DNA from: Escherichia coli
Lineage (GTDB): Bacteria > Pseudomonadota > Gammaproteobacteria > Enterobacterales > Enterobacteriaceae
Length of the DNA stretch: 64,000 bases
Assembly: GCF_003334785.1 (NCBI RefSeq)
Contig: NZ_QOWV01000004.1
Strand: one strand, 5' to 3'
A program made the translations under genes and the position numbers. Each line of letters begins with the position of its first letter. The first letter of the stretch is position 1. Below, piece after piece: positions 51,447 through 57,432 of this stretch. The notes under the pieces were generated by a model. It had not been told where the DNA came from. It did no database searches and saw only the letters and a program-made list of their open reading frames with translations.

Positions 51447-52220
51447 ATGTCAGTACCTCTCATTCTGACCATACTGGCGGGGGCAGCCACGTTTATTGGC
51501 GCGTTTCTCGGCGTTCTCGGGCAAAAACCCTCGAACCGCTTACTGGCGTTTTCGCTAGGTTTTGCGGCGGGGATCATGTTGCTCATCTCATTAATGGAAA
51601 TGCTTCCTGCCGCACTAGCAGCTGAAGGAATGTCGCCTGTGTTGGGTTATGGAATGTTTATCTTCGGTCTGCTTGGCTATTTTGGCCTGGACCGCATGTT
51701 GCCACATGCTCATCCGCAGGATTTAATGCAAAAATCGGTGCAGCCGTTGCCAAAATCGATCAAGCGCACAGCCATTCTGCTCACTCTCGGCATCAGTCTG
51801 CATAACTTCCCGGAAGGGATTGCCACCTTTGTCACGGCGAGCAGCAACCTGGAGCTGGGATTTGGCATCGCACTGGCCGTCGCGTTGCACAATATCCCTG
51901 AAGGTCTGGCAGTGGCAGGCCCGGTTTATGCGGCAACGGGGTCTAAACGCACCGCGATTCTGTGGGCGGGGATTTCTGGACTAGCAGAAATTCTTGGTGG
52001 TGTGCTGGCGTGGTTAATCCTCGGTAGCATGATTTCCCCGGTGGTCATGGCGGCAATCATGGCGGCGGTTGCAGGAATTATGGTGGCGCTCTCGGTTGAT
52101 GAATTAATGCCGCTCGCCAAAGAGATTGACCCTAATAATAACCCCAGCTATGGCGTACTATGTGGAATGTCAGTGATGGGATTCAGTTTAGTGCTGCTAC
52201 AAACGGCGGGAATTGGTTAA
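51447..52220 (+). CDS. zupT: Zinc transporter ZupT (ZIP family)
   Basis: 257 aa from internal Met [22 protein letters not shown]... Confidence 0.97.
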
Positions 52221-52277
52221 AAACAACATCAGAAGTTGTCCAGCGCATGGACAACTTCTGCCAGCTTCACGAAAGCC

Positions 52278-52448
52278 TTATTCTACCTTTTCGGCTGTCT
52301 CTTCTCTCGTACTGTTTAAGTATTTGTTCCGCGCTTCAAGCAGTGCGTCTCTGTCCTGGCGAAACGCCCGACAATAACGTTTCAAATGCAGGAAATAACC
52401 CACCACAACCAGAGCAATCAATACAATCCAGTACCAGGCGATAAACAT
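52278..52448 (-). CDS. Candidate small membrane protein (56 aa)
   Basis: ATG preceded by AAGGGTAAAAGG ribosome-binding site; one predicted TM helix (FIAWYWIVLIALVVVGYFL) and a charged C-terminal tail; own AT-rich upstream region. Confidence 0.5.
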   Translation of the reverse strand: MFIAWYWIVLIALVVVGYFLHLKRYCRAFRQDRDALLEARNKYLNSTREETAEKVE

Positions 52449-52649
52449 CCTTTTACCCTTAATATTTAACAATACTAAACATTTAGCGTATAAATTTCAC
52501 ATATCCTTTTTCGGATATATTCATATGGTCGCATAATAACGGAACAATTATATGATTTTGATCATAATGAAAAAGAATGCCTGATATTAATGAAATTTTC
52601 TCATAGAAAGAGAAGCGGAATTAACATCTTGCATAGCAGGGAAAAATAA

Positions 52650-52677
52650 AAACCGAAGCCTGCTACAACTTCGGTTT
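52650..52677 (-). terminator. Rho-independent terminator of ribB
   Basis: aaaccgaag / cttcggttt stem followed by T-run on the minus strand. Confidence 0.7.
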
Positions 52678-52709
52678 CTTGATTAAGGCAGTAAATTAAG
52701 CAGCGGTTT

Positions 52710-53363
52710 TCAGCTGGCTTTACGCTCATGTGCCTGACGGTATGCCACCAGGTCTTCAATAGTCACGAGCGCCATATTGTGTTTATTGGCAAACTCAATA
52801 CACTCTGGTGCACGCGCCATCGTGCCATCGTCATTAGTCAGCTCACACAGTACACCAGCCGGTTTAAAGCCTGCCAGCGTCATCAGATCAATAGTTGCTT
52901 CAGTATGACCGCCACGCGTCAGTACACCACCTGCCTGAGCGCGAAGTGGGAAAACGTGGCCAGGACGATTCAGATCTGACGGTTTTGCGCCATCGGCAAT
53001 CGCTGCGCGAACGGTCGTAATACGGTCAGCGGCAGAAACACCGGTAGTCACACCTTCAGCTGCTTCAATGGTCACGGTAAAACCGGTGCCATAGGCGCTG
53101 GTGTTATTTTCTACCATCATTGGCAGATCGAGTTGTTTACGGCGATCTTCAGTAATGCACAGGCAAACAATACCGCTACCGTGGCGAATGGTCAGCGCCA
53201 TCTGCTCAACAGTCATGGTTTCTGCCGGGAAGATCATATCACCTTCGTTTTCACGGTCTTCATCATCAAGCACCATTACACCGCGTCCTTCACGCAGCGC
53301 AGCCAGTGCATTTTCAACACGTTCGAAAGGCGTACCAAAAGAGGAAAGTAGCGTCTGATTCAT
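52710..53363 (-). CDS. ribB: 3,4-dihydroxy-2-butanone 4-phosphate synthase
   Basis: 217-aa [45 protein letters not shown]... Confidence 0.98.
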
Positions 53364-53630
53364 GGTAAAAAAACCTCACTAAAATTATGGTTACCAGAAT
53401 CAGGGCAGTCTTAGGAGTGGCGGCATATAGCCAAAATAACGTGAGCGGGTCCATGCCCGACAGAATCGTTACTCTCTCCCATCCGGACTCTAACCGTCGG
53501 CCCCGGAATTACACCGGATCTGCTGTCCTTTGAGTTCGCACCCAAAGCGCTCGCGGGCTTTCAACTGAGTTGATTTACCGCCGGTGGGGAATTTCGCCCC
53601 GCCCTGAGAATAAGCGGATTCACTATAACG
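53364..53630 (-). promoter_or_regulatory. FMN riboswitch (RFN element) in ribB 5' leader
   Basis: Minus-strand leader contains the conserved core ...ttctcagggcggggcgaaattccccaccggcggtaaatcaactcagttgaaagcccgcgagcgctttgggtgcgaactcaaaggacagcagatccggtgtaattccggggccgacggttagagtccggatgggagagagt (aptamer about 53470-53625). Confidence 0.85.
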
Positions 53631-53736
53631 CTAATGATTAGCGGCAGCAACGCATAGCTTCACATAATTCTGGTTTATGACTTACCCTTATCGCACTACA
53701 ATGGCACTCAACACCTATCAGTACAGGGAAACTACA

Positions 53737-54310: not shown

Positions 54311-54862
54311 ATGTCCGCTTTTAAAAAGTCACTTCTTGTTGCTGGCGTAGCAATGATTCTTTCCAATAACGTGTTTGCTGATGAAGGTCACGGTATTGTT
54401 AAATTTAAAGGTGAAGTTATCTCTGCTCCATGTTCTATTAAACCAGGTGACGAAGATTTAACTGTAAATCTGGGTGAAGTAGCAGATACCGTACTGAAAA
54501 GCGATCAGAAATCTTTGGCTGAACCTTTCACTATTCACCTGCAGGACTGCATGCTGAGTCAGGGTGGAACTACTTATTCAAAAGCGAAGGTTACTTTCAC
54601 TACAGCAAATACCATGACGGGTCAGTCTGATCTTCTGAAAAATACCAAAGAAACTGAAATCGGCGGCGCCACTGGCGTTGGCGTACGTATTCTGGACAGC
54701 CAGAGCGGCGAAGTAACTTTAGGTACTCCGGTAGTAATTACGTTCAACAATACCAACAGCTATCAGGAACTGAATTTCAAAGCTCGTATGGAATCCCCAA
54801 GCAAAGATGCCACCCCGGGCAACGTTTACGCTCAGGCTGACTACAAGATTGCTTACGAGTAA
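54311..54862 (+). CDS. ygiL: Fimbrial major subunit-like protein YgiL
   Basis: 183-aa ORF with signal peptide, fimbrial subunit C-terminal motif; AT-rich upstream region. Confidence 0.92.
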   Translation: MSAFKKSLLVAGVAMILSNNVFADEGHGIVKFKGEVISAPCSIKPGDEDLTVNLGEVADTVLKSDQKSLAEPFTIHLQDCMLSQGGTTYSKAKVTFTTANTMTGQSDLLKNTKETEIGGATGVGVRILDSQSGEVTLGTPVVITFNNTNSYQELNFKARMESPSKDATPGNVYAQADYKIAYE

Positions 54863-54912
54863 TCGCATTTGGCCGGGTTCGCCCGGCCACATCATTAACG
54901 GATTAATGATAA

Positions 54913-57426
54913 GTGGATCAGATGTATAAAAAATTAAAATTAACCACAATAAGCGAATTGATTAAAAATATTTATTGTTCATTATCCGTTATCATCATTG
55001 GTTGTGCGTCAGCTTATGCCGTTGAATTCAACAAAGATTTAATCGAAGCCGAAGATCGTGAAAACGTTAACCTTTCCCAATTTGAAACTGATGGCCAATT
55101 ACCCGTCGGCAAATATTCACTAAGTACTCTGATTAATAATAAGAGGACGCCAATCCACCTTGACCTCCAATGGGTATTAATTGATAACCAAACTGCAGTT
55201 TGCGTGACACCAGAGCAATTAACATTATTAGGATTTACTGATGAATTTATTGAAAAAACTCAGCAAAACCTGATCGATGGTTGTTACCCTATCGAAAAAG
55301 AAAAACAAATTACAACTTATCTCGATAAAGGGAAAATGCAATTATCCATATCTGCACCTCAGGCATGGTTAAAATACAAAGATGCAAACTGGACGCCTCC
55401 TGAACTTTGGAATCATGGTATTGCTGGGGCATTTCTTGACTACAATTTATATGCCTCTCATTATGCACCACATCAGGGCGATAATTCGCAAAATATAAGT
55501 TCCTATGGGCAGGCTGGGGTTAATCTTGGGGCCTGGCGCCTGCGTACTGATTACCAGTACGATCAGTCATTTAACAATGGCAAAAGCCAGGCGACCAACC
55601 TGGATTTTCCGCGTATTTATTTGTTTCGCCCAATCCCAGCAATGAATGCAAAACTAACTATAGGTCAATACGATACTGAATCCTCTATTTTCGACTCTTT
55701 CCATTTTTCTGGCATTTCGTTGAAAAGCGATGAGAATATGTTACCGCCAGACCTACGTGGTTACGCACCGCAAATCACGGGTGTCGCACAAACGAATGCA
55801 AAGGTCACTGTCTCACAGAACAACCGTATTATTTATCAAGAAAATGTTCCTCCAGGCCCATTTGCTATTACCAATTTATTCAATACATTACAGGGGCAAC
55901 TTGACGTCAAGGTTGAAGAAGAGGACGGACGCGTTACGCAATGGCAAGTTGCATCTAATAGTATTCCTTATCTGACGCGTAAAGGGCAGATTCGCTACAC
56001 CACTGCTATGGGTAAACCGACCAGCGTTGGTGGTGATTCCTTACAACAACCCTTCTTCTGGACTGGTGAATTCTCATGGGGTTGGCTGAACAATGTATCC
56101 CTGTATGGTGGTTCAGTTTTAACAAACCGTGATTATCAATCTCTGGCTGCCGGCGTTGGTTTTAACCTTAACTCATTAGGTTCATTATCTTTTGATGTCA
56201 CACGATCTGATGCTCAGTTGCATAATCAGGATAAAGAAACGGGTTATAGCTACCGCGCTAACTATTCAAAACGTTTTGAATCTACCGGTAGCCAGCTCAC
56301 TTTCGCTGGTTACCGTTTCTCTGATAAAAACTTTGTGACAATGAATGAATATATCAATGACACTAACCATTACACGAATTATCAGAATGAAAAAGAGAGT
56401 TATATTGTCACGTTTAACCAGTATCTTGAATCATTAAGGTTAAATACATACGTAAGTTTGGCTCGTAATACTTACTGGGACGCCAGCAGTAATGTGAATT
56501 ATTCATTATCACTTAGCCGCGATTTTGATATCGGGCCATTAAAAAACGTCTCCACTTCTCTAACATTTAGCCGAATAAACTGGGAAGAAGACAACCAGGA
56601 TCAACTGTACCTAAATATTTCGATTCCCTGGGGAACTAGTAGAACATTGAGCTATGGTATGCAACGAAATCAGGATAATGAGATTTCGCATACTGCTTCG
56701 TGGTATGACTCTTCCGATCGAAATAATTCCTGGAGCGTTTCTGCTTCAGGCGACAATGATGAATTCAAAGATATGAAAGCGTCACTACGCGCCAGTTATC
56801 AGCATAATACCGAGAACGGTCGACTCTACCTCTCCGGTACATCACAGCGAGACAGTTATTATTCTCTGAATGCCAGTTGGAATGGTTCATTCACTGCGAC
56901 TCGCCACGGTGCCGCTTTCCACGACTATAGCGGTAGTGCTGACTCGCGTTTTATGATCGACGCAGACGGCACTGAAGATATTCCGTTGAACAATAAACGC
57001 GCGGTAACTAATCGGTATGGCATCGGAGTTATTCCATCAGTCAGCAGTTACATAACAACATCATTAAGTGTTGATACCCGAAATCTGCCAGAAAATGTGG
57101 ATATCGAAAACTCGGTTATCACCACCACCTTAACCGAGGGTGCTATTGGCTACGCCAAACTTGATACCCGCAAGGGCTACCAAATCATAGGGGTTATTCG
57201 CCTGGCAGATGGTAGTCATCCACCACTGGGGATTAGCGTAAAAGATGAAACCAGCCACAAAGAATTAGGACTGGTTGCTGATGGCGGCTTTGTATACCTC
57301 AACGGCATTCAGGATGATAACAAACTTGCTTTACGCTGGGGTGACAAATCTTGTTTTATTCAACCACCCAATAGCAGCAACTTAACCACCGGAACGGCTA
57401 TTTTACCGTGTATTAGCCAAAATTAA
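54913..57426 (+). CDS. yqiG: Fimbrial outer membrane usher YqiG, uninterrupted
   Basis: 837-aa continuous ORF, usher family; no insertion sequence present. Confidence 0.92.
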   Translation: MDQMYKKLKLTTISELIKNIYCSLSVIIIGCASAYAVEFNKDLIEAEDRENVNLSQFETDGQLPVGKYSLSTLINNKRTPIHLDLQWVLIDNQTAVCVTPEQLTLLGFTDEFIEKTQQNLIDGCYPIEKEKQITTYLDKGKMQLSISAPQAWLKYKDANWTPPELWNHGIAGAFLDYNLYASHYAPHQGDNSQNISSYGQAGVNLGAWRLRTDYQYDQSFNNGKSQATNLDFPRIYLFRPIPAMNAKLTIGQYDTESSIFDSFHFSGISLKSDENMLPPDLRGYAPQITGVAQTNAKVTVSQNNRIIYQENVPPGPFAITNLFNTLQGQLDVKVEEEDGRVTQWQVASNSIPYLTRKGQIRYTTAMGKPTSVGGDSLQQPFFWTGEFSWGWLNNVSLYGGSVLTNRDYQSLAAGVGFNLNSLGSLSFDVTRSDAQLHNQDKETGYSYRANYSKRFESTGSQLTFAGYRFSDKNFVTMNEYINDTNHYTNYQNEKESYIVTFNQYLESLRLNTYVSLARNTYWDASSNVNYSLSLSRDFDIGPLKNVSTSLTFSRINWEEDNQDQLYLNISIPWGTSRTLSYGMQRNQDNEISHTASWYDSSDRNNSWSVSASGDNDEFKDMKASLRASYQHNTENGRLYLSGTSQRDSYYSLNASWNGSFTATRHGAAFHDYSGSADSRFMIDADGTEDIPLNNKRAVTNRYGIGVIPSVSSYITTSLSVDTRNLPENVDIENSVITTTLTEGAIGYAKLDTRKGYQIIGVIRLADGSHPPLGISVKDETSHKELGLVADGGFVYLNGIQDDNKLALRWGDKSCFIQPPNSSNLTTGTAILPCISQN

Positions 57427-57432
57427 TTCAGG

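Follow-up and report, generated by a model that had tools for sequence, protein, structure and literature searches.

The 56-codon open reading frame (ORF) that lies between zupT and ribB in the 64,000-nt stretch of Escherichia coli DNA analysed here (the window; contig NZ_QOWV01000004.1) is the already annotated gene yqiD (b4756). We make this identification with high confidence, and the ORF is a rediscovery rather than a new gene. The gene has been annotated since a small-protein screen in 2018 and is already known; what we add is: (i) the unification of published observations into one transcription unit; (ii) a family-wide protein motif; (iii) a control region with a palindrome; and (iv) a population and phylogenetic survey, none of which would surprise a specialist. 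yqiD is a monocistronic minus-strand unit composed of an upstream module of ~120 nt, the ORF and its own terminator, which abuts the 3′ end of zupT. The pattern of substitutions indicates that the ORF is under strong purifying selection. The likeliest mechanism for the protein is that of a bitopic inner-membrane modulator acting through a cytoplasmic helix, with ZupT as a speculative partner. The features of the locus are collected in Table 1.

Table 1. Features of the yqiD transcription unit, in window coordinates
Feature	Position	Strand	Basis
yqiD CDS (b4756), 56 codons + TAA stop	52278..52448	-	ORF list, MG1655 annotation
Predicted transmembrane (TM) helix, codons 2-22, FIAWYWIVLIALVVVGYFLHL, N-terminal side uncharged	52383..52445	-	Hydropathy, AlphaFold2
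Basic juxtamembrane helix (predicted cytoplasmic), codons 23-42, KRYCRAFRQDRDALLEARNK, best-conserved protein segment	52323..52382	-	Alignments
Hydrophilic charged tail, codons 43-56, sequence and length variable	52281..52322	-	Alignments
Shine-Dalgarno (SD) core AAGGG, 7 nt from ATG	52456..52460	-	Sequence
Conserved A/U-rich leader, -60 to -1	52449..52508	-	Column entropy
16-bp perfect palindrome TATGATCAAAATCATA, -118 to -103, candidate regulator site	52551..52566	.	Conservation
Putative -10 hexamer CATATG (K-12), inferred	52522..52527	-	Invariant A-T-A, SELEX peak
yqiD intrinsic terminator, 13-bp stem 52260-52230 + T-run reaching the zupT stop codon	52220..52260	-	Terminator scan

Identity of the ORF and published evidence

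A 56-aa ORF had been predicted between zupT and ribB from the sequence, with no strand given. It is present on the minus strand, where the sequence and the ORF list give a 56-codon frame plus TAA that begins at an ATG (52448-52446), ends at a TAA (52280-52278) and translates as MFIAWYWIVLIALVVVGYFLHLKRYCRAFRQDRDALLEARNKYLNSTREETAEKVE (56 aa). Its bases are an exact DNA match to RefSeq MG1655 yqiD (b4756, 3183381-3183551, "protein YqiD"; YP_009518818.1 and WP_000469266.1), and protein identity is 100% over 56 aa. The window is K-12 MG1655 sequence: a 3.2-kb piece of NC_000913.3 (3182300-3185500) occurs in it as an exact substring, and the position in NC_000913.3 equals the window position plus 3131103. 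RefSeq E. coli genomes name the product 'protein YqiD' as well. The flanking genes are zupT (51447-52220, plus strand), which is convergent with yqiD, and ribB (53363-52710, minus strand).

Experimental evidence for the gene comes from several published sources. VanOrsdel 2018 (PMC6001520) placed yqiD between zupT and ribB at 3183381-3183551, with 56 aa of identical sequence, and demonstrated synthesis of the protein by chromosomal SPA tagging and immunoblotting, the tagged protein being detectable in LB cultures. According to the same paper, YqiD had earlier been an unassigned positive of a ribosome-profiling screen with tetracycline-arrested ribosomes. Two of the checks proposed along with the original prediction, ribosome occupancy and an epitope-tagged fusion, thus have positive answers in print. 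Bilusic 2014 (PMC4152368) described an RNA of ~320 nt, "ig-ribB-zupT", that co-immunoprecipitated with Hfq and was confirmed by Northern blotting; its level dropped in hfq and RNase III (rnc) mutants, and the authors listed it as a "bona fide sRNA" candidate while remarking on a putative 56-aa ORF within it. The ~320-nt yqiD RNA is thus, on published evidence, bound by Hfq and dependent on Hfq for its stability. A 2025 preprint reports that yqiD expression is altered by natural variants 5′ of the gene, with concordant activity of this region in a GFP reporter. Finally, in enteroaggregative E. coli (EAEC) strain 042, an ORF labelled 'DUF4051', Orf3334, was up-regulated in an aar mutant. Strain 042 has the divergent form of yqiD immediately following zupT, at a place where one number is missing from the RefSeq tag series; Orf3334 is very probably yqiD.

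Coding constraint and choice of start codon

The length of the ORF is by itself not beyond chance: when the 489-nt spacer is shuffled, 16% of the products contain a frame of at least 56 aa, and there are 166 ORFs of this length or more in the window. It is conservation, together with the published experiments, that lifts this one above chance. We compared the orthologous DNA of both E. coli alleles, of E. albertii and Salmonella, of four Citrobacter lineages and of a metagenome-assembled contig (L008). In the gap-free alignment of codons 1-42, pS between species is 0.45-0.94, which is near saturation, as against a pN of 0.03-0.25, and omega (core dN/dS) is 0.03-0.25 wherever dS is computable. 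Synonymous positions are thus saturated while the protein core is kept, which is how the proposed examination of synonymous sites turned out. Among 27 Escherichia, Salmonella and Citrobacter loci, the variable columns at codon positions 1, 2 and 3 number 18, 13 and 37 of 41, respectively. Every other frame, the three antisense frames included, has stop codons in K-12. For an overlapping plus-strand ORF of 94 aa, coordinate arithmetic puts the third positions on the least variable codon position of yqiD.

A longer reading of 64 aa from an upstream in-frame TTG was considered and rejected, because a 1-nt indel between the TTG and the SD/ATG side breaks the frame in other species and the longer reading is therefore not conserved.

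Distribution and alleles

Within E. coli, yqiD is near-universal and exists as two deeply diverged alleles. The CDS was found in 5425 of 5426 complete genomes; a K-12-type allele (>=95% identity) accounts for 4432 genomes, with full-length matches in 32 of 32 sampled rows, and the divergent allele for a further 987. An intact CDS annotation was present in all sampled K-12-type rows and in seven of the eight sampled divergent rows. In at least one natural isolate, yqiD has been removed by an IS1-associated deletion, and the gene is thus dispensable in that isolate.

On a wider scale, 100,044 species were scanned with one genome each, and 37 loci with yqiD orthologues were obtained. These belong to Escherichia, Citrobacter, Salmonella, Intestinirhabdus, Kosakonia, Phytobacter and Pseudocitrobacter, together with one strain labelled 'Enterobacter sp.', and no family member was detected by the scan outside these seven named genera and that strain. 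All 37 species-level genomes have an intact, ATG-initiated ORF of 51-74 aa. Frame-disrupting variation, which had been named as an observation that would speak against a coding ORF, was seen neither in these genomes nor in the rows sampled from the 5425 E. coli genomes. When 1.84 billion representative proteins were searched exhaustively with a profile, there were only 25 matches, all of them members of the same small family or its fragments or chimeras. The YqiD family is therefore very small and enterobacterial.

Anatomy of the protein

At 56 aa, and with a single predicted TM helix, YqiD fits the definition of a small bitopic protein. One hydrophobic helix followed by a charged tail had been predicted, and this description holds: the Kyte-Doolittle maximum is 2.43, at residues 2-20, and residues 23-56 contain 9 K/R and 7 D/E. 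AlphaFold2, supplied with an alignment of the family, models residues 2-55 as a single continuous helix; mean pLDDT is 74, and values are 85-88 over residues 1-20. Of the claim that the ORF encodes a single-pass membrane protein, the part concerning a translated 56-aa protein stands, and membrane insertion is a prediction from hydropathy and the structural model. There are no charges before the TM helix, whereas K23, R24, R27 and R30 follow it, so that by the positive-inside rule an N-out/C-in topology is predicted. It is quite likely that YqiD is a bitopic protein of the inner membrane in this orientation; one or two N-terminal residues would then be periplasmic and the C-terminal ~34 residues cytoplasmic. 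No report of a membrane localisation, topology, binding partner or phenotype for YqiD was found in the searchable literature.

Conservation is unevenly spread along the protein. Among 17 close homologues, the invariant residues are M1, I3, W5, Y6, W7, Y18, H21, K23, R24 and A28, and also R30, D32, R33, D34, A35 and L36. Over the whole family (30-50% identity), only M1, A28, R30, R33 and A35 are invariant, with I3, W5, W7 and R24 nearly so. In the TM segment, W5, Y6 and W7 are invariant or almost so in the homologue alignments. There are no conserved columns beyond K42, and total lengths range from 51 to 74 aa. The sole part conserved across the whole family is (K/R)R-x-x-(K/R)-A-x-R-x-x-R-x-A. 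Because conservation sits in the juxtamembrane helix and the aromatic cap, these two elements, the latter being the N-terminal end of the TM segment, would appear to be what determines function, and not the tail or the bulk of the TM segment. Such a pattern would fit a small protein that docks onto a second protein on the cytoplasmic side of the membrane, and it points to no particular partner.

Database searches with YqiD gave no characterised relative above threshold in Pfam, NCBIfam, PDB, PADLOC or PHROGs. NCBIfam returned sub-threshold matches only, and the weak Pfam-A matches, to DUF2621 (i-E 8e-4), DUF6526 and DUF4381, look like composition-driven TM matches. The best PDB sequence match had E = 0.3, PADLOC gave none, and the PHROGs matches had E >= 0.019. 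The 'DUF4051' label carried by homologues appears only in some source names and in the EAEC 042 paper and is absent from the Pfam-A scan output; that family may have gone from the Pfam library.

Control region, promoter and terminators

The 12 bases preceding the ATG are AAGGGTAAAAGG, and the longer 5′ context reads TTAAGGGTAAAAGG. The ORF had been credited with a properly spaced ribosome-binding site, and an AAGGG core does end 7 nt before the ATG; AAGG(G) is kept at this position in all Escherichia, Citrobacter and Salmonella loci. A second AAGG was rejected as the SD, since it touches the ATG and is too close. The region upstream had also been described as AT-rich, as a possible promoter and as bounded by the ribB terminator. 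All three descriptions agree with what we find: the 252 nt upstream are 70% A+T as against 50% for the window, the promoter is backed by the published GFP reporter activity and by a SELEX peak for the RpoS holoenzyme (below), and a terminator-like hairpin (52679-52648) follows ribB.

Among 26 distinct upstream regions, column entropy is 0.25-0.65 from -60 to -1 and ~0.3 over the palindrome (about -120 to -101), and rises to 1.3-1.6 upstream of -120; third codon positions, used as a yardstick, have 0.98. These values suggest a conserved upstream module of ~120 nt that is sharply bounded, with the palindrome TATGATCAAAATCATA as its 5′ edge. The palindrome occurs once in the window, against 0.08 occurrences expected by chance. 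In Escherichia, Citrobacter, Salmonella and Intestinirhabdus, each locus has a version of it, ATGATC[AG]AAATCAT, at -114 to -118; among the 37 species-level genomes, the Kosakonia and Phytobacter loci are without it. The string has no occurrence in the searchable literature.

The consensus dyads are TGTGA-N6-TCACA for CRP and TTGAT-N4-ATCAA for FNR, and a canonical class II site for either is centred at -41.5 from the transcription start. The half-sites of the palindrome can be written as TATGA-N6-TCATA or, equivalently, as ATGAT-N4-ATCAT, and match 8 of 10 positions of the CRP and of the FNR consensus each. The deviation from consensus is symmetric and is conserved in all loci of the clade. 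If the inferred -10 (52527-52522) is used, the centre of the palindrome is at about -43.5 from the start, compared with the canonical -41.5. A class II site of the CRP/FNR-family type is a lead only, suggested by these resemblances. Readings of the upstream repeats as Zur, Fur, ArcA, PhoP or OmpR-type sites were set aside, as spacing or half-sites misfit; the repeat TGTTT-N5-TGTTA, for example, has a period of 10 bp and not 11, and there is no TGTTATA-N-TATAACA.

An A-T-A at -78 to -76 is invariant and fits positions 2-4 of a -10 element, which reads TATATG in most relatives and TATAGT in C. freundii; no conserved -35 was found in the aligned upstream regions. A start near -67, as this -10 implies, gives a transcript of ~294 nt to the terminator, compared with ~320 nt on the Northern blot. 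The alternative K-12 hexamer TATAAT (52552-52547) gives an RNA of ~318 nt, a slightly better fit, but it is not conserved, Salmonella and C. freundii being without the critical A at position 2. Positions in the older E. coli coordinate system are offset by ~1977-1978 bp, the difference in length between U00096.2 and U00096.3. In a genomic-SELEX study with the RpoS holoenzyme, Shimada 2017 (PMC5493296) reported a peak at 3181642, in the zupT>/<ribB spacer, which was classed as 'type C', that is, downstream of both flanking genes and with no gene to explain it. With the shift applied, the peak falls at window position ~52515-52518, 67-70 nt upstream of the yqiD ATG; SELEX-chip resolution is coarse, and the peak places a polymerase-binding site within the yqiD upstream region and no finer. 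As a cross-check of the shift, the neighbouring peak 154 then lies correctly inside the ubiK/ygiL spacer.

Transcription would then begin ~67 nt 5′ of the ATG. The promoter, its -10 being weak and a -35 lacking, would be one that the sigma-S holoenzyme recognises in vitro, and a factor bound at the palindrome, which is centred ~43 bp upstream, probably helps or represses it. We give about an even chance to this arrangement, in which a promoter of the sigma-S/sigma-70 type is modulated through the palindrome. A scan for promoter-like sites inside the ORF gave none on either strand.

At the 3′ end, strong hairpins of different sequence occupy the same position as the terminator in E. whittamii, E. 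albertii, the divergent E. coli allele, Salmonella and several Citrobacter. On the zupT strand, the shared hairpin is without a T-run. The leader showed little sign of structure: its single-sequence fold has z = -1.47, which is not significant, and alifold with 27 leader sequences gave -1.24 kcal/mol and only a weak A-U/G-U stem over the start codon. Rfam, searched with both strands of 52150-53700, gave no family except the FMN riboswitch. It is plausible that an Hfq-dependent sRNA regulates yqiD post-transcriptionally through the conserved leader. One candidate, pairing of Spot 42 with the yqiD SD region, was rejected; in duplex prediction, a crude test on long sequences, it scored z = -0.93 relative to shuffles, and unrelated initiation regions did equally well or better.

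Genomic neighbourhood

Downstream of yqiD, 36 of the 37 species-level genomes have zupT in convergent orientation, the gap being -17 to +75 nt, and zupT also adjoins yqiD in all metagenomic loci that have enough flank, distant members included. The exception is Pseudocitrobacter, where zupT-ygiD is missing from the site and an intact YqiD-like ORF abuts ygiC. The upstream neighbour varies: it is ribB in 21 genomes, at 166-983 nt; Salmonella and some Citrobacter have assT-dsbL-dsbI there, and E. albertii and ~990 E. coli genomes a fimbrial operon. Because vertical descent in a syntenic region would itself produce the zupT adjacency, it is weak evidence of a functional link among such closely related genera.

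Possible functions of yqiD

There are several possible scenarios for what the locus does. The mechanism that we favour has YqiD binding and modulating a larger membrane protein, as other enterobacterial small membrane proteins do. The basic helix with its family-wide motif may be the part through which it acts on that protein, a proposal that follows from our analysis and that we hold tentatively; the tail would be a variable spacer. A more specific version would make YqiD an accessory or regulatory subunit of ZupT, or a metal-responsive element, with the TM segment docking on ZupT and a Cys/His-containing juxtamembrane segment sensing or transmitting the metal status of the cytoplasm. This hypothesis is motivated by the adjacency to zupT, which is retained while the upstream neighbour changes, and by the frequency of Cys/His at residues 18-31, where most members have one to four (CHMKRYC in Citrobacter and Salmonella, H21/C26 in E. 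coli). We judge it unlikely, since ygiC-ygiD-zupT-ribB is syntenic in these related genera anyway, yqiD and zupT are convergent and not co-transcribed, and Pseudocitrobacter keeps a YqiD-like ORF at a site from which zupT-ygiD is absent. The idea of a metal site at H21/C26 is further weakened in that neither residue is invariant across the family (Kosakonia, Phytobacter and Pseudocitrobacter-type members differ), and one member, P0117, is without Cys/His in the segment. Moreover, if ZupT is widespread beyond the few genera in which the scan detected the YqiD family, it cannot generally require YqiD. A composite proposal is in our view rather improbable: YqiD might be a dedicated ZupT partner or metal-homeostasis factor that is stationary-phase or regulator-controlled and adjusts metal uptake by way of the basic helix with its Cys/His residues, with an Hfq-bound mRNA that is perhaps a riboregulator too. 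If true, it would provide a new pair of small protein and transporter, comparable with MntS, which acts on MntP, and MgtS, which acts on MgtA, and ZupT would be the first bacterial ZIP transporter known to have a protein regulator.

The remaining scenarios do not involve a membrane protein that modulates another. It is conceivable that the ~320-nt transcript works chiefly as an sRNA that base-pairs in trans with the help of Hfq, or that it has a dual function; the leader would then be the seed and the peptide secondary. The co-immunoprecipitation with Hfq, the destabilisation without Hfq and the "bona fide sRNA" candidacy (Bilusic 2014, PMC4152368) would be expected of such an RNA, as would a strong terminal hairpin with a U-run and a non-coding leader more conserved than synonymous sites. 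Yet association with Hfq is also found for mRNAs that are the targets of sRNAs, and these too can be less stable in its absence; the sequence of the 3′ UTR and terminator is not conserved, and neither an Rfam match nor Spot 42 pairing better than chance was obtained. Above all, the ORF is under strong purifying selection at the protein level, and the peptide is therefore not incidental; we consider this reading highly unlikely. A membrane-damaging peptide of the type I toxin kind, checked by an antisense RNA such as zupT read-through, has only a very slight probability. YqiD is indeed a short hydrophobic peptide with one predicted TM helix, occlusion of the start codon by the long conserved leader is a weak prediction, the dependence of the RNA level on RNase III could indicate an antisense duplex, and read-through would be compatible with the hairpin without a T-run on the zupT strand. 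Against this, the tagged protein accumulates in ordinary LB cultures, the long conserved polar helix is atypical for pore-forming toxins, and neither an antitoxin RNA family nor a PADLOC match was found; in addition, a single-copy, syntenic gene that is vertically inherited in at least seven genera under purifying selection is unlike typical type I toxin genes. That the ORF is a functionless chance frame in the spacer has virtually no probability and is already refuted: the shuffled spacers and the lack of a match to a characterised family would allow it, but the frame is conserved and intact under purifying selection across genera, is present in nearly every complete E. coli genome and is translated in vivo.

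Relation to known systems

Our preferred reading, a bitopic modulator of a larger membrane protein, is in line with what is known of MgtS, MgrB, AcrZ, MntS, CydX, KdpF and PmrR, which like YqiD have fewer than 60 aa and one TM helix. With proteins of the MgtS/MgrB/AcrZ type, YqiD further shares a short charged cytoplasmic segment, its own transcription unit, an origin in small-ORF screens and restriction to enterobacteria; it differs from them in having no sequence similarity and no known partner or inducing signal. Also unlike these proteins, YqiD has its conserved part in a polar helix of unusual length (~20 residues) rather than in the TM segment.

Three published observations, namely an Hfq-bound 'intergenic sRNA', an orphan sigma-S peak and the YqiD protein, thus belong to one transcription unit. 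A reading of raw sequence had in this case recovered a genuine, experimentally validated small gene. New handles for YqiD are the basic juxtamembrane motif, the palindromic operator candidate and the bounded 120-nt control region, and further ones are the near-universal presence in E. coli, the two diverged alleles and the nearly invariant zupT neighbourhood.

As an RNA, the yqiD transcript resembles SgrS/SgrT, Spot 42/SpfP and AzuCR, in that it is bound or stabilised by Hfq, ends in an intrinsic terminator with a U-tail and encodes a small protein. It differs from them in that the ORF takes up more than half of the transcript and is itself constrained, and in having no known base-pairing target. 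In the MG1655 annotation, SpfP lies inside spf. With the type I toxins Ibs, Ldr, Hok, TisB and ShoB, yqiD has in common a small hydrophobic peptide and a long leader; it is set apart by being single-copy and syntenic, by a product that is detectable in normal growth, by the long charged helix and by the lack of an antitoxin RNA in our searches. In strains EcPF5 and 042, the corresponding region has Ibs toxin genes at a distance of ~9-12 kb.

Allelic divergence and rearrangement at the yqiD locus

Within E. coli, yqiD exists as two deeply diverged alleles (window 52278-52566; compared loci L002, L012 and L055, E. coli EcPF5 and 042). The K-12-type allele is carried by about 4430 E. coli genomes and the second (WP_001296421.1) by about 987. 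Approximately 70% of core synonymous sites differ between the two, and the 3′ part is less alike than are the promoter and 5′ part. Divergence begins directly after the zupT stop codon. ZupT (WP_001295627.1) is identical in UMNK88 and EcPF5, despite the diverged yqiD alleles alongside. There is also a recombinant allele, represented by P0013.

On the other side of the gene, K-12 has its chaperone-usher fimbrial operon at one site, and EcPF5 and 042 have a fimbrial operon at another (see table); E. albertii similarly has one between yqiD and ribB. The upstream junction of yqiD is thus a rearrangement point. Insertion elements have also entered the locus. In E. coli FCI23, an IS1 element occupies the expected place of yqiD and the first fimbrial genes (L003 2572-3500), so that yqiD has been naturally lost there, and strain S30 (match H1) has an IS1 insertion inside the 601-nt zupT-yqiD-ribB stretch. 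Overall, the yqiD coding sequence is without a match in 1 of the 5426 complete E. coli genomes.

Coordinates of features associated with yqiD and ribB
Feature	Coordinates	Strand	Remarks
7-codon mini-ORF in yqiD leader	window 52462-52485	minus	-37 to -14 from ATG
Fimbrial operon (ygiL-yqiGHI region), K-12	window 54311-59257		between ubiK and glgS
Fimbrial operon, EcPF5 and 042	L012 8479-13453		between yqiD and ribB
FMN riboswitch RF00050, ribB leader	window 53467-53615	minus	120.9 bits; matches RefSeq annotation
Sub-threshold STnc240 match, ribB stop and terminator region	window 52641-52711	minus	29 bits versus gathering score of 55

Linkage to zupT, chimeric proteins and Cys/His residues

Among the 37 species-level genomes with an intact yqiD orthologue, linkage to zupT is broken only in a Pseudocitrobacter MAG, where a YqiD-like ORF is kept between assT and ygiC (L052 2501-2656; also L016) at a site that is without zupT and ygiD. 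Two predicted proteins are chimeric. In P0124 (L015 1499-1876), ZupT residues 1-70 are joined in frame to a YqiD-like C-terminus, which would fit either an inversion between convergent zupT and yqiD or a misassembly of the 2-kb contig. In P0103, on a contig of 739 bp, a UbiK N-terminus is joined to a YqiD C-terminus.

At the membrane-cytoplasm boundary (residues 18-31), most members of the family alignment (A4) have one to four Cys/His residues: Citrobacter and Salmonella, for example, carry CHMKRYC, Kosakonia H..C..C.H patterns and Phytobacter H..C....C. The positions shift among members, and one member has none in this segment. Although the compared sequences are not independent of each other, the pattern hints at a chemistry of metals or thiols.

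Putative yqiD promoter, leader and RNA matches at ribB

A SELEX study of the RpoS holoenzyme reported an orphan peak of 'type C' between zupT and ribB, at 3181642 in old coordinates (PMC5493296). This position converts to window ~52515-52518 and coincides with the inferred yqiD promoter; the orphan peak would thus be explained by yqiD, then an unannotated gene.

The leader contains a mini-ORF (AUG UUU AGU AUU GUU AAA UAU UAA), whose stop codon overlaps the yqiD SD. Most loci of Escherichia, Salmonella and the C. freundii group preserve its frame and stop. With its AUG missing in E. albertii and the C. amalonaticus/sedlakii group and no SD of its own, the mini-ORF is probably untranslated.

Besides the FMN riboswitch in the ribB leader, the ribB stop and terminator region matches the Salmonella sRNA family STnc240 below threshold; this region may be a 3′-UTR-derived RNA of ribB.
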